Virus record (IMG/VR): IMGVR_UViG_3300028883_000054
Location: 1 to 58,943 of that record
Strand: one strand, 5' to 3'
From: a virus
Taxonomy: Duplodnaviria; Caudoviricetes
Length of the DNA stretch: 58,943 bases
Position 1 is the first letter of the stretch. The number at the start of each line of letters is the position of its first letter. Positions 42,565 through 58,943 of this stretch are shown here, piece by piece. The notes beneath the pieces are model-generated. The model did no database searches. It had not been told where the DNA came from and saw only the letters and a list, made by a program, of their open reading frames with translations. The position numbers were made by a program, and so were the translations under genes.

Positions 42565-42765
42565 TTAATCTCCTTTGTCTTCTAACATTTTAACAGTTAT
42601 CAAATTCGGTTTCATAACTAAAAACACTTGTTGTGAATCAGGATTTACATCAACTGAAACAGTTGAAATAAAATTAGTAATGTCTAAAATAAGTTCATCC
42701 TTTTTTAAAATAACTGATGTTATTTTAGAATGTTTGTTTCTTAAAATTTCAACATCCATTATCAT
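42565..42765 (-). CDS. hypothetical protein
   Basis: ORF in late operon. Confidence 0.5.
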   Translation of the reverse strand: MIMDVEILRNKHSKITSVILKKDELILDITNFISTVSVDVNPDSQQVFLVMKPNLITVKMLEDKGD

Positions 42766-52467: not shown

Positions 52468-52487
52468 TTGTCTCTCCTCGTAATTTG

Positions 52488-52559
52488 TAGCGGGAGAGGG
52501 ATTTGAACCCTCGACCTTCAGGTTATGAGCCTGCTGAGCTACCGCTGCTCCATCCCGCG
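52488..52559 (-). tRNA. tRNA-fMet (CAU), CCA not encoded
   Basis: CGCGGGA-TG-GAGC-AGCGGTA-GCTC-A-GCAGG-CTCATAA-CCTGA-AGGTC-GAGGG-TTCAAAT-CCCTC-TCCCGCT-A; C1:U72 mismatch. Confidence 0.92.
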
Positions 52560-54429: not shown

Positions 54430-54466
54430 AAAATAAAAATGACCAGGGACGGGGGACCCTGGCCAT
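54430..54466 (-). terminator. intrinsic terminator at end of late leader
   Basis: ATGGCCAGGG-loop-CCCTGGTCAT-TTTTATTTT on - strand. Confidence 0.7.
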
Positions 54467-54635
54467 TGTACGAGGAAAAAATGTTTTTAAAACCACAAAG
54501 AGAACTATGACGATAAGAGGGATAATATAATGAATTGTCGTTGTAATCTCTGTATGCGCTACCTGTTCTCATTACATTACCCTTTGAGTTGCACAACAAG
54601 GAGTAAGTCAGTTCAAAAAGCATTATCGTCCATGC

Positions 54636-54664: not shown

Positions 54665-54773
54665 GAATATTTATGTTTTATTTAAATTATTTTTTGCCTG
54701 CAAACCTGTCAAACTCTTTATATTTTTATATTTATTATACTTATGTCGTATTATTTATTTTACTGTTTTATAT

Positions 54774-54881
54774 ATTTTTTTTTATTTTTTTTTATTTTTT
54801 GCTTGACTTTTTCAAATAAAATGTTTATATTAATAATAGATAAAGGGAATAATAAAACAAACCAAACGAGGTGAAAAAATG
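54774..54881 (+). promoter_or_regulatory. early promoter/RBS repeat, copy 1
   Basis: phased AT9 tracts, TTGACT(54803)-17-TATATT(54826), CGAGGTG RBS. Confidence 0.88.
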
Positions 54882-55187
54882 AAAACATCAAAATTTCAGA
54901 TAGCAGACGCTTTAAGTTCTAAGATGGTTGACGTAACTGCTTGGAATGTTAAATATTTAGAACATGCTAAAAAAGCAATATTTGAAAATGATGAAAAAAT
55001 CATGACAATAGAAGAAATAAAATTAAAGGTTGAAAATGAAATTGTTGGTACCACTTGGAAATTAACTATAACTACGAAAAAAGACAATAAAACTCATGTC
55101 GAATTTAGGGAGAATGAATCCGCAAAATTGGAAATATTAATGTTTGCTACATCAAGAGGATTTTTTAAAAATTTAGAAGAATTATAA
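54879..55187 (+). CDS. first early gene, hypothetical (duplicated)
   Basis: ORF after promoter; second copy spans the window ends. Confidence 0.8.
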   Translation: MKTSKFQIADALSSKMVDVTAWNVKYLEHAKKAIFENDEKIMTIEEIKLKVENEIVGTTWKLTITTKKDNKTHVEFRENESAKLEILMFATSRGFFKNLEEL

Positions 55188-55223
55188 TAACTTAATCAAG
55201 ACCTATAAACGAGGAGATACAAA

Positions 55224-55397
55224 ATGAAGACAATGACATTCACAAAGAGAGAATTAGACATGTTAAGAAGAGCGACATTTTCATTCATGGCTAGTGATGA
55301 TAGCGAAAAGTTTCAAAATGATGAAATGAATGAAATGTTTAAGAGGTTGACTAAGGCATTTAACGAAACAGAAGAAAATTCAAGCGAAGCAGCCTAA
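55224..55397 (+). CDS. 57-aa early protein ([LF]T..E...L family), not in ORF track
   Basis: GAGGAG RBS; MKTMTFTKRELDMLRRA...; TAA lies in hammerhead stem I. Confidence 0.7.
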   Translation: MKTMTFTKRELDMLRRATFSFMASDDSEKFQNDEMNEMFKRLTKAFNETEENSSEAA

Positions 55398-55443
55398 CTG
55401 ATGAGCTTTCAATAAGCGAAACTCCCTGCGGGGAGTCTTAGGC
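55392..55443 (+). ncRNA. hammerhead ribozyme, type I
   Basis: GCCTAA-CTGATGA-GCTT(TCAAT)AAGC-GAAA-CTCCC(TGCG)GGGAG-TC-TTAGGC; predicted cut after C55437. Confidence 0.93.
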
Positions 55444-55468
55444 AATTAAACAAAACGAGGAGAAAGCC

Positions 55469-55660
55469 ATGAAAACGATTAAAAATAAAGAAGAATTAGA
55501 ACACGAAGCATGGAGAATAATTCTAATTATAACAGATAACTCAATACGCGGTAGTTTACCAACGGAGGGAGAAGTTAGAAGTCTTGTAATAGAAATAAAA
55601 AAATGGAATAAATGTTATAAAGATATATCTGCAGACAATATAATTAAAAATTATTTATAA
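55469..55660 (+). CDS. small early protein
   Basis: GAGGAG RBS. Confidence 0.7.
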   Translation: MKTIKNKEELEHEAWRIILIITDNSIRGSLPTEGEVRSLVIEIKKWNKCYKDISADNIIKNYL

Positions 55661-55678
55661 GTCTAACTGATGAGCTTT
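55661..55678 (+). repeat. hammerhead 5'-half repeat
   Basis: GTCTAACTGATGAGCTTT; 16-nt identity to 55394-55409. Confidence 0.8.
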
Positions 55679-55703
55679 TAATTAAACCAAACGAGGTAAA
55701 AAA

Positions 55704-55889
55704 ATGAAAGAGAATAATTACAATTTAACAGTTGAAGAAGCTAAGGTTTTAAAGTCTGTCTTGTTAGATAAAGCGTTGAAACTTACTTATAGATGTAAAT
55801 CTTTATTAAGTCCTGATCAATTAACAGAATTGGATATTATGAATAAACAAATAGATAAATTAAGTAAATTAATTAAATCTTTTAAATAG
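55704..55889 (+). CDS. small early protein ([LF]T..E...L family)
   Basis: LTVEEAKVLKSVLLDK. Confidence 0.7.
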   Translation: MKENNYNLTVEEAKVLKSVLLDKALKLTYRCKSLLSPDQLTELDIMNKQIDKLSKLIKSFK

Positions 55890-55901
55890 AAGGAAAATAA
55901 A

Positions 55902-56132
55902 ATGGAAAATTTAAAAAATCAAGAAAATAAAGATCGAATTCCTTTAATTTTTACAGTAAAAGAAATTGAAATTTTAAAATCAATATTAATTGATAAAGTA
56001 AACGATCTCGAGTGGTTAAATCGTCCTTTATTTTTATCGGAAAAAATGCAAAAAGAATTCATCAATAAAACAATAGAAGAGATAGAACTTATAAAATCGA
56101 TTTTAATTAATACGGAAACAGATATTAAATAA
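55902..56132 (+). CDS. small early protein ([LF]T..E...L family)
   Basis: FTVKEIEILKSILIDK. Confidence 0.7.
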   Translation: MENLKNQENKDRIPLIFTVKEIEILKSILIDKVNDLEWLNRPLFLSEKMQKEFINKTIEEIELIKSILINTETDIK

Positions 56133-56156
56133 ATAATATAAAACGAGGAGAATAAA

Positions 56157-56660
56157 ATGGAGAACTATTTTAAAACCTGTGAAACCGTTGCTGATGTTAA
56201 AAAACTTTATAGAGAACTCGCGAAAGAAAATCATCCAGATCATGGCGGATCTACTCGAACAATGCAAATCATTAATGATTTGTATCATGCAAAATTAAGA
56301 AAACTGGATGGTCAAACTTCAATCGGGACAGATAAGAAAAAACATCAATATCATTATAATCACGTTGTCGAACAAGAGTTAATTGATAAAATTAACGAAT
56401 TGCTAAAAATTAAAATGATTGATGTTGAGATGGAATTAATAGGGACGTGGCTATGGGTTAAAGGAGATACGAAAAAATACAGAAAAGAATTTAAAAAATT
56501 AAAATTATGCTGGCATCCCAAGCGAAATGCTTGGTACTATCGCAAATATGATTATCGCCGAAAAATGAGCAATTTGAGCTTTGATCAATTGCGTCAGATG
56601 TACGGTTCTAAAGATATTGATCAAGAAGAGAAACAGATGAAAAAAGCTTTAAAAAAATAA
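56157..56660 (+). CDS. J-domain (DnaJ-like) protein
   Basis: VKK.YR.LA...HPD.GG....MQ.IN..Y; ELIGTWLWV.G.T C-domain. Confidence 0.85.
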   Translation: MENYFKTCETVADVKKLYRELAKENHPDHGGSTRTMQIINDLYHAKLRKLDGQTSIGTDKKKHQYHYNHVVEQELIDKINELLKIKMIDVEMELIGTWLWVKGDTKKYRKEFKKLKLCWHPKRNAWYYRKYDYRRKMSNLSFDQLRQMYGSKDIDQEEKQMKKALKK

Positions 56661-56673
56661 GCGAGGTGAAAAG

Positions 56674-56853
56674 ATGAAAACGTATAAAATTGAATTAACA
56701 GAAGTTGAAGCCGCTGTCATTAAAAATGTGCTGCAAAATACAGAGCACGATTTAGATAAATGGACAGAACCTGATGATGAAGATCTTTTAATGATTAAAG
56801 TCTGTAATAATGTTTCAAAAAAGATTTATAATACTTTCTGGGGAAAAAACTAA
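56674..56853 (+). CDS. 59-aa early protein ([LF]T..E...L family), not in ORF track
   Basis: GAGGTG RBS; MKTYKIELTEVEAAVIKNVL. Confidence 0.7.
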   Translation: MKTYKIELTEVEAAVIKNVLQNTEHDLDKWTEPDDEDLLMIKVCNNVSKKIYNTFWGKN

Positions 56854-56912: not shown

Positions 56913-57440
56913 ATGGCAACTTATAAAGAATCAATAAATAATTTAAGCGATTTAGTTAAATCGCCTCAATCTAAAATTAAAGATGCGCTTAGTGACGGTT
57001 TTTATATTAAAAATAGATGGATAGAAACAGTATTTAAGCGAGTTCCGGATAGCTTAAATTTAAGTCGGAAATATTCTCAAAGTGATGAGATAATAAATGA
57101 TTTTAAATTCCTTGCCGACTTACCGATTGAACATTTCTACGTTTTCTATCTTACCACTCGATTAGAAGTTTTAGGACTTCAATTAGCGGGAATTGGTTCA
57201 GTATTAGGAACAGAAATTGATATTCGAAATGTAACTTATAACGCCATACAATTAGGAAGCACTGCTGTTATTTTCCTTCATAATCATCCAAGCGGAGATT
57301 CTGAACCATCAAAGCCCGATAAAATTATTACAAATAAATTTAAAGCTATTTTTGAATTATTTGGAATAACTTTGGTTGACCATATAATTATTGCTTATAA
57401 TAATTATTATTCATTTGCGGATAATCGTTTAATTACATAA
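56913..57440 (+). CDS. radC: RadC-family JAB domain protein
   Basis: E.F....L, HNHPSGD..PS..D, LVDHIII, YYSF. Confidence 0.9.
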   Translation: MATYKESINNLSDLVKSPQSKIKDALSDGFYIKNRWIETVFKRVPDSLNLSRKYSQSDEIINDFKFLADLPIEHFYVFYLTTRLEVLGLQLAGIGSVLGTEIDIRNVTYNAIQLGSTAVIFLHNHPSGDSEPSKPDKIITNKFKAIFELFGITLVDHIIIAYNNYYSFADNRLIT

Positions 57441-57450
57441 TATTTTCTTT

Positions 57451-57559
57451 ATTTTTTTTTATTTTTTTTTATTTTTTGCTTGACTTTTTCAAATAAAATG
57501 TTTATATTAATAATAGATAAAGGGAATAATAAAAACAAACCAAACGAGGTGAAAAAATG
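57451..57559 (+). promoter_or_regulatory. early promoter/RBS repeat, copy 2
   Basis: TTGACT(57480)-17-TATATT(57503); near-identical to copy 1. Confidence 0.88.
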
Positions 57560-57991
57560 AAAAATTTATATGAAATAAGAACTAGCAGACATAATTTCAG
57601 AATATTATCTAATAACCTACAAGAAGCTGAAGAACAAGCTATTGAAATTATTAAAGTTAATGACCACAATCCTAATTTTTGCGGAAAGAATATGATCGTT
57701 CATCAAATTGAGAATGATACTAATTCAAAAATTTTTCAAGAAGCTTATTATAATGAATTTTTAGCATTTTTAAATAATATCGCAGGCGAAAAACTGGAAG
57801 TTATTGTTTTTGAAATTAATTATTTAGTTGTAAATATTAAGGTTTTAGGATCGGAATTAGGTACATTAAGACTTTTTAAAAATTATTCAACCCTTACTAC
57901 TCGCGATGGAATAGATCAAGGAAAATCACCTGTAACAGGACAATTTTATTTTCAACTGCAATTTGTTGAAAAAGAAGAAAATTTCAAATAG
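57557..57991 (+). CDS. hypothetical early protein
   Basis: ORF after promoter; LQEA...A..I...NP.F shared with 671..1063. Confidence 0.75.
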   Translation: MKNLYEIRTSRHNFRILSNNLQEAEEQAIEIIKVNDHNPNFCGKNMIVHQIENDTNSKIFQEAYYNEFLAFLNNIAGEKLEVIVFEINYLVVNIKVLGSELGTLRLFKNYSTLTTRDGIDQGKSPVTGQFYFQLQFVEKEENFK

Positions 57992-58008: not shown

Positions 58009-58034
58009 TCGAGACTCCTCGGAGGGAGTCTCGA
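58009..58034 (+). repeat. hairpin derived from hammerhead 3' half
   Basis: TCGAGACTCCT-CGGA-GGGAGTCTCGA; flank matches 55418-55466. Confidence 0.65.
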
Positions 58035-58062
58035 GCAAATTAACCAAAACGAGGAGAAAGTT

Positions 58063-58344
58063 ATGATAATGTCATACAAAAGAGGATACCAAATAAAACC
58101 TAATAAAATAAACGAAAAGAAAATCATAAAAAGAAAGTATGAATTAGTAATTGACGGAAAAATCATCTGTGCTGATAATGTATATCATTATCAAGCTATT
58201 AATGAATTTGAATGGGATATTAAAGCATTTTTTTCACCTATGAATAAAACAGAATTTGAAAACTTATACAACGACTTTCAATCAGATGGAAATGGATGGA
58301 CCGCGGTGTATTTCGACCATATCGTCGAAATTCGCAGAGCGTAA
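58063..58344 (+). CDS. early protein, paralog of 671..1063
   Basis: KYELVIDG, INEFE.DI, VEIRRA. Confidence 0.75.
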   Translation: MIMSYKRGYQIKPNKINEKKIIKRKYELVIDGKIICADNVYHYQAINEFEWDIKAFFSPMNKTEFENLYNDFQSDGNGWTAVYFDHIVEIRRA

Positions 58345-58394: not shown

Positions 58395-58441
58395 CAAAGA
58401 TCTATTAAATAAGAATATTAAATAAAATCGAGGAAAAAGCC

Positions 58442-58807
58442 ATGGAAACAAAAGATCAAAACAGAGCTATAATAATTAATATGATATCTTTTAATGCGAG
58501 AAAAAATCGGTATGTCTGTAAACACTGCGGCAAAAGCTATAAGACAGGGACGGGTTGCTTTAATCATATTAAAAATAATCATATGGATCTTGTCGTTAAT
58601 GTTAGACATCAAATGATTACAAAGGAACATGGATTAGAATCCGACGATGTACGACATAGAGAACCTAAAATAAATCAATACATGATCTCAGGCGAAAGAT
58701 TTAATTTATACTTTGCAGGAAAAGAAAGTAAAGAAGCATTTAAACAGGTTATAACCGAATTAGAGGAAATGATTAAGAAAAGTGAAGTAAAAATTAGAAA
58801 AGTATAA
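58442..58807 (+). CDS. C2H2-type Zn-finger protein
   Basis: YVCKHCGKSY.......HI...H. Confidence 0.7.
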   Translation: METKDQNRAIIINMISFNARKNRYVCKHCGKSYKTGTGCFNHIKNNHMDLVVNVRHQMITKEHGLESDDVRHREPKINQYMISGERFNLYFAGKESKEAFKQVITELEEMIKKSEVKIRKV

Positions 58808-58820
58808 ACTTATGTGGTTT

Positions 58821-58928
58821 ATTTTTTTTTATTTTTTTTTATTTTTTGCTTGACTTTTTCAAATAAAATGTTTATATTAATAATAGATAAAGGGAATAAT
58901 AAAACAAACCAAACGAGGTGAAAAAATG
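58821..58928 (+). promoter_or_regulatory. early promoter/RBS repeat, copy 3
   Basis: TTGACT(58850)-17-TATATT(58873); followed by ATG AAA ACA TCA AAA TTT as in copy 1. Confidence 0.88.
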
Positions 58929-58943
58929 AAAACATCAAAATTT

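Follow-up and report, generated by a model that had tools for sequence, protein, structure and literature searches.

The text of Perreault et al. (2011; PMC3088659) describes hundreds of bacterial hammerhead ribozymes, many of them within prophages, with several hammerheads often flanking single genes or short gene blocks, and proposes that long phage transcripts are processed in this way into operon- or gene-length mRNAs. Clustered prophage hammerheads in three tandem arrangements are reported there to cleave in vitro in polycistronic constructs of ~2 kb, and one triple arrangement to cleave in vivo after cloning into E. coli; the same text mentions a hammerhead in a halovirus, located in an early polycistronic transcript with 13 nt between it and the start codon that follows, and another hammerhead upstream of ardA in Legionella. 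The idea that clustered phage hammerheads process mRNA has been in print since that paper (PMC3088659). A 2019 review (PMC6765202) states that the purpose of such hammerheads is still undefined and that additional work is needed, and our literature search found no later paper testing the function of phage intergenic hammerheads.

The element described here resembles the clustered phage hammerheads of PMC3088659, as these are presented in the text of that paper, in having a consensus core, in lying between co-oriented phage genes, in occurring in multiple copies in related contigs, and in suiting the processing proposal. By the same textual comparison it differs in being single in its genome, where it lies beside two decayed copies.

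Among Rfam families, Hammerhead_1 (RF00163) shares with our element the type I topology and an identical core, while RAGATH-1 (RF03152), which gives the best Rfam bit score, shares stem I (cuUAa/UUAag-like) and the start of stem III (ACUCCC/GGGAGU). The stem II region of RAGATH-1, however, is very short, whereas that of our element is a normal 4-bp stem with a 5-nt loop, and the upstream hairpin of RAGATH-1 aligns poorly to our sequence.

Engineered insulators of the RiboJ type offer a further point of reference. These place a hammerhead just before the ribosome-binding site (RBS), where it trims variable upstream RNA and leaves a defined leader. They are synthetic, having been built from a satellite-RNA type III hammerhead and an added hairpin, whereas the phage element is natural and its role is one that we infer.

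The locus and its predicted hammerhead

The window analysed is the whole of IMG/VR record IMGVR_UViG_3300028883_000054, a stretch of 58,943 bases with an estimated completeness of 79%. Two DNA sequencing runs found to contain it carry the label marine sediment metagenome and may be its source; none of the runs listed for it is an RNA run. A minus-strand block from ~23.8 to 54.4 kb contains genes for the large terminase, the portal and the tape-measure protein, among others, which identifies the source, an uncultured virus, as a tailed dsDNA phage; genes on the plus strand extend from 54,879 to where the record ends, and others cover 1 to ~23 kb. Within the minus-strand structural block lies a tRNA-Met gene (anticodon CAT; 52487-52559, minus strand), and a terminator-like 11-bp GC-rich hairpin followed by a T-run (54438-54467, minus strand) is present in the divergent region between the two gene blocks.

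A sigma-70-like promoter on the plus strand, TTGACT-17-TATATT at 54803-54831, was recognized as a consensus match only, and is likely, on the sequence, to be the start of the hammerhead-carrying transcript. It lies inside a 124-nt repeat that also carries the first 18 nt of a gene and that occurs at 54773-54896, at 57450-57573 (84% identity) and at 58820-58943 (100% identity to the first). Given that the third copy runs exactly to the contig end, the assembly probably broke at the repeat. Measured from the first copy of the promoter, the hammerhead site comes ~560 nt further downstream, where it separates the second small ORF of the unit from the third.

The ORFs that flank the site on the plus strand encode products of 57 aa (55224-55397, TAA stop at 55395-97) and 63 aa (55469-55660, ATG at 55469), and these, like most of their neighbours, matched no Pfam or PHROG family. 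The only recognizable proteins among the small plus-strand, probably early, ORFs were a J-domain-like protein with an HPD motif (56157-56660; Pfam DnaJ at 21.4 bits, below the cutoff of 27.8; phrog_15863 at 6.8e-30) and a RadC-like JAB protein (56913-57440; PF04002 at 9.6e-31). GenBank phages yielded nothing in a blastn search with 54800-56700 as query. Searches of viral contigs for relatives of the 57-aa, 63-aa and 167-aa neighbours confirmed none, and a search for the 167-aa neighbour in metagenome contigs likewise confirmed no relative. The preliminary description of this DNA had spoken of early, host-takeover genes downstream of the hammerhead. The second term finds no support, given the lack of family matches for the 57-aa and 63-aa products and most of their neighbours; the first can be kept in a weaker form, in that a site ~560 nt past a sigma-70-like promoter beside a divergent region is probably early, as judged from position only.

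The intergenic element itself is a complete type I hammerhead (55392-55443, plus strand) with an open stem I and a predicted cut between C55437 and U55438. The 5' strand of stem I, GCCUAA (55392-55397), ends in the TAA stop codon of the 57-aa ORF and pairs with the 3' strand UUAGGC (55438-55443), which would form the 5'-OH end of the downstream RNA. The core, as read from the sequence, consists of C3-U4-G5-A6-U7-G8-A9 (CUGAUGA, 55398-55404) and G12-A13-A14 (55418-55420), and between these two segments stands stem-loop II, GCUU-UCAAU-AAGC (55405-55417), with 4 bp (55405-08 / 55414-17) and a 5-nt loop that matches the subfamily consensus U-N-A-W-U. Stem-loop III, ACUCCC-UGCG-GGGAGU (55421-55436; strands 55421-26 / 55431-36), extends from A15.1 to U16.1 and is followed by C17 (55437; H17 = C), the nucleotide 5' of the scissile bond. 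The element is flanked by A(-1) at 55391, which is nearly invariant in the subfamily described below, and by A(+1) and A(+2) at 55444-55445, which are conserved in it.

Stems I, II and III comprise 6, 4 and 6 bp without mismatch, and the pairs adjacent to the core are all standard: G10.1-C11.1 (G55405-C55417), A15.1-U16.1 (A55421-U55436) and U1.1-A2.1 (U55438-A55397). Since stem I is the open helix and stems II and III are closed by loops, the topology is type I. The minimum free energy (MFE) and centroid folds of 55385-55450 were exactly the hammerhead three-way junction (-19.8 kcal/mol, z -2.2), a stability that was matched by 8 of 200 shuffles. In a 171-nt context, the MFE structure paired both stem I strands with upstream coding sequence and not with each other, but this alternative had an ensemble frequency of 0.017 and was not significant (z -1.0). 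The preliminary description, which had been made from the sequence, reported a canonical hammerhead with a full core and three perfect stems, and this is upheld by the sequence, the fold and the family comparison; it had also placed the upstream stop codon in stem I and the next start codon 31 nt beyond the cut, and both hold, with TAA at 55395-97 inside 55392-97, and 55438-55468 followed by ATG at 55469.

To cleave the RNA at this site would be to leave a 31-nt A-rich leader (55438-55468, plus strand) carrying a Shine-Dalgarno sequence, GAGGAG, at 55457-55462. This leader/RBS module is repeated at five early gene starts (families D3, D5). In the 171-nt fold the ribosome-binding site was unpaired whether the RNA was cut or uncut, and cleavage therefore probably unmasks no translation.

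The likelihood that such a motif would arise by chance was assessed with our own descriptor, which specifies CUGANGA, GAA, three stems and H17 and was scanned over both strands. The hammerhead at 55392-55443 was its sole site on either strand of the window. Stems of at least 6, 4 and 6 bp were found in none of 1500 simulated first-order Markov windows, and canonical 10.1/11.1 and 15.1/16.1 pairs together with at least 16 bp in total were found in one of 1500. At medium stringency, a relaxed descriptor gave 74 matches in 400 simulated windows; relaxed descriptors thus match random sequence, and a hammerhead-like motif alone is no proof across very many windows. We also built a covariance model, R2, for which the window was left out and 59 hammerheads were taken from other phage contigs; aligned over the full length (1-60), our element scored 74.1 bits (E 5.6e-16) against it. 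The motif in the window is not a chance occurrence, and by sequence comparison it belongs beyond reasonable doubt to a phage hammerhead family. Model matches at 42704-42729 (15.6 bits, E 0.24) and others at E >2 were AT-rich hairpins without stems II and III and were rejected, and a loose gapped pattern was uninformative (3 matches against 7.5 expected).

Rfam was of no help in detection. The preliminary description had proposed a scan with the Rfam hammerhead models as a check, and no model reached its gathering score on the window; over the whole window, the only match at gathering score was tRNA-Met. In a scan by E-value, RAGATH-1 scored the window at 19.9 bits (E 0.69) against a gathering score of 56.3, and Hammerhead HH9 (RF02275), the best clan match, at 16.8 bits (E 0.23) against 52; Hammerhead_1, for which the gathering score is 34 bits, did not report the window at that threshold. 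When 60 descriptor-found hammerheads from 12 multi-copy loci were examined, Rfam at gathering score detected just one of them (L017:2233-2282, Hammerhead_1, 36.2 against 34 bits).

Relatives in viral and bacterial contigs

Relatives were sought in IMG/VR with two patterns, both of which demanded the core. Pattern 1 added to it no more than the first pairs of stem III and matched 64 loci, and pattern 2 added three pairs of stem I and matched at least 119 stretches; the two together gave at least 177 loci. Our descriptor, applied to these viral loci and the window, returned at least 308 hammerheads, at least 262 of them different from one another; among the matches listed, a single locus carried as many as 9, which occupied successive intergenic gaps.

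Stems left free by the patterns were almost always present in the raw matches. With pattern 1, stem I had at least 4 bp in 50 of 51 distinct sequences and stem II at least 4 bp in 49 of 51, and with pattern 2 all undemanded stems were present in 137 of 151 distinct sequences among the matches listed. Similarly, a pattern covering the 5' half only gave four metagenome matches, all four of which showed a stem III that is paired though of another sequence, followed by GUC and the 3' strand of stem I. A gap-free alignment of 60 hammerheads (A1) had changes on both sides in 14 of 16 pairs; its rows were pre-selected for pairing, and the percentage paired in it is meaningless.

Nine subfamily hammerheads each occupied successive intergenic gaps in loci L040 and L017, and four to nine hammerheads were present in L040, L017, L133, L195, L205 and L219, which comprise phage contigs and small contigs binned into MAGs. 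Pattern 2 also matched 44 stretches of bacterial genome contigs (L182-L225), 24 of them titled Legionella or Legionellaceae, with the remainder from Mucilaginibacter, Daejeonella and assorted MAGs.

Among the matches listed, 184 distinct hammerheads share a stem I of 6 bp and a stem-loop II of 13 nt; they delineate a subfamily, and all of the following counts are given within that set. The CUGAUGA core is invariant except at N7. The base 5' of stem I, A(-1), is A in 182 of 184, and the outermost pair of stem I has G on the 5' side in 181 and C on the 3' side in 179; beyond stem I, the first base, A(+1), is A in 177 and the second, A(+2), is A in 151. Loop II has U at position 1 (182/184), A at position 3 (158/184) and U at position 5 (159/184), and H17 is C in 169 members and A in 15. 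None of these features outside the core was demanded by the search patterns save H17, which was C in both. The element in the window has every one of them: A55391, G55392:C55443, A55444-45, a 6-bp stem I and a 13-nt stem-loop II with the loop UCAAU.

Natural hammerheads need a tertiary contact between stem I and loop II for fast cleavage at the Mg2+ concentrations of the cell. The flanks, the outer G:C pair and loop II show conservation far above background, and the fixed length of stem I and the conserved unpaired bases may form such a contact in this subfamily. Mutual information between loop II and the flanks, computed as a sign of a pseudoknot, identified only A(-1) and U(L2.1) as covarying; the two co-change (A/U to U/A) in 2 of 183 rows, which is suggestive, though too few to show pairing.

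The placement of the family between genes is equally regular. Among the matches listed, an upstream ORF of at least 40 aa ends near 234 of the 262 distinct hammerheads, and in 161 of these 234 its stop codon lies between -9 and +1 relative to C3; of these 161 stops, 48 are in the UAA of stem I and 39 in the UGA of CUGAUGA, and the others abut stem I. The start codon of an ORF of at least 40 aa follows within 120 nt of the cut in 241 of the 262, and the resulting leaders are mostly 19-32 nt long, A-rich and G-poor, again among the matches listed. With an upstream stop codon that falls within stem I and a leader of 31 nt, the element in the window, on the sense strand, is placed as is usual in the family. 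Judged by these comparisons, the element is an ordinary member of a very large phage hammerhead subfamily that standard annotation has missed.

Altered copies in the same operon

The next intergenic gap contains the dead relic of a second hammerhead (55657-55691, plus strand), recognizable by an exact 16-mer repeat. The relic keeps A(-1), the 5' strand of stem I, CUGAUGA and GCUUU, after which a 34-column internal deletion extends up to the shared leader (alignment A3), so that what followed in stem II is lost together with GAAA, stem III and the cleavage site. Against model R2 the relic scores 18.3 bits (E 0.05) with 33 positions missing, and a stable fold is absent.

A third intergenic gap holds an 11-bp perfect hairpin (58009-58034, plus strand; -19 kcal/mol, z -2.85) that lies 28 nt before the ATG at 58063, has no U-tract and is followed by the same leader and RBS. 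The hairpin aligns to the 3' half of the hammerhead and its leader with 80% identity over 54 nt (BLAST, E 3.2e-8); in alignment A3, GAAAC has become GAGAC, changes on the opposite strand lengthen the helix, and CUGAUGA is absent. Model R2 gave no match to 58009-58034 at E <= 1. On this alignment the hairpin was probably derived from the 3' half of a hammerhead, and it may be a processing or stabilizing hairpin. The presence of a relic and of a plain hairpin in neighbouring gaps indicates that the hammerhead is dispensable at equivalent operon positions, and that these modules turn over.

Proposed role of self-cleavage

Hammerhead cleavage leaves a 2',3'-cyclic phosphate on one product and a 5'-OH on the other, and RNases that are stimulated by a 5'-monophosphate start decay poorly from a 5'-OH end. 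We consider it probable, from sequence and predicted fold, that the element in the window is a catalytically competent type I hammerhead in a plus-strand (probably early) operon transcript, which cuts itself and in doing so likely uncouples the neighbouring cistrons. Once transcribed, the hammerhead would fold and cut itself after C55437. The upstream RNA would then carry ~40 nt beyond the stop codon that closes the 57-aa ORF and gain a 2',3'-cyclic phosphate, and the downstream cistron would be freed with a 5'-OH end and a fixed leader, 31 nt of A-rich, unstructured RNA bearing the RBS. The likely result would be that the stability and translation of the two neighbouring cistrons are uncoupled, and the downstream gene would receive a standard leader whatever precedes it, making the element in effect a natural insulator. 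The analysis shows the motif, its fold, the family to which it belongs and the placement of that family between genes; from these we infer cleavage in vivo, the tertiary contact between the flanks and loop II, and a physiological effect. Separating the fates of the two RNA halves is more likely to be the function than unmasking translation, and the mRNA-processing role that had been suggested in the preliminary description fits the placement seen across the family, in which the stop codon abuts the ribozyme and a leader of 19-32 nt follows.

The position of the stop codon also raises the question of whether cleavage is gated by translation, such that a ribosome terminating on the upstream ORF melts stem I and the core, and the RNA is cut only when that ORF is untranslated or ahead of the first ribosome. 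The stop inside stem I in the window, together with the stops at -9 to +1 of C3 in 161 of 234 family members among the matches listed, speaks for such gating, as does the 171-nt fold, in which the strands of stem I may pair instead with coding sequence upstream of them, and regulated cleavage is raised for phage hammerheads in the text of Perreault et al. (PMC3088659). The tight packing of phage genes alone, however, would put stops beside the ribozyme, and the alternative fold is not significant (z -1.0); we regard gating by translation as unlikely.

Another reading is a competent but functionally neutral, decaying passenger, in which hammerhead-plus-leader modules travel with cassettes of small early genes and are lost by erosion wherever they serve no need, the copy in the window being intact by chance. 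Both the deleted relic and the probable hammerhead-derived hairpin in the same operon are consistent with erosion of this kind, and the identities of the flanking genes are not conserved, with no relatives of the neighbours found in the contigs searched. Against this, the element in the window matches all conserved positions, including the flanks and loop II, which would be expected to drift first, and placement is strongly constrained across the family, so that a neutral passenger seems to us quite improbable.

Finally, the motif could be due to chance, or could belong to a plain hairpin that serves as a terminator or as a protein-RNase site and only looks like a hammerhead. This might be argued from the failure of Rfam to match at gathering score, from the plain hairpin in the equivalent slot at 58009-58034 and from the 74 chance matches of relaxed descriptors in 400 simulated windows, but with none of 1500 simulated windows reaching such quality, a model R2 E-value of 5.6e-16, and neither a U-tract nor any called terminator-like site after stem III, this reading is close to refuted.

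Self-cleavage that separates neighbouring cistrons is thus the reading that we prefer for the element, and a broader proposal can be made for the subfamily, which we offer tentatively and hold to be possible rather than probable. The subfamily may constitute a distinct, very abundant and compact type I subclass unseen by Rfam, in which loop II (U-N-A-W-U) would make a fast-folding contact with the single-stranded A and AA flanks at the open end of a stem I of exactly 6 bp; it would serve as a portable insulator and leader module before phage early cistrons, and in this phage its turnover would be visible as one intact copy, one internally deleted copy and one copy converted by compensating changes into a plain 11-bp hairpin. 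The comparison of this proposal with PMC3088659 is with the text of that paper only. Were it true, it would suggest that ribozyme sites and hairpins that act as protein-RNase sites or stabilizers are interchangeable answers to one intergenic job.

On what bacterial and phage hammerheads do, the copy in the window alone sheds little light. The family picture is more useful, in that a fixed 6-bp stem I with invariant flanks, a short leader of fixed kind, an abutting stop codon and the existence of decayed copies lead to hypotheses that are cheap and testable. The near-invisibility of these hammerheads at Rfam gathering thresholds implies that routine annotation pipelines overlook most such elements.

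The leader that follows the cut is itself a recurrent feature of this phage. An A-rich leader with a Shine-Dalgarno sequence (AAUUAAACAAAACGAGGAGAAAG-like; families D2, D3 and D5) precedes many of the small plus-strand genes, at sites that include 55444-55475, 56132-56163, 58038-58069 and 58417-58448.
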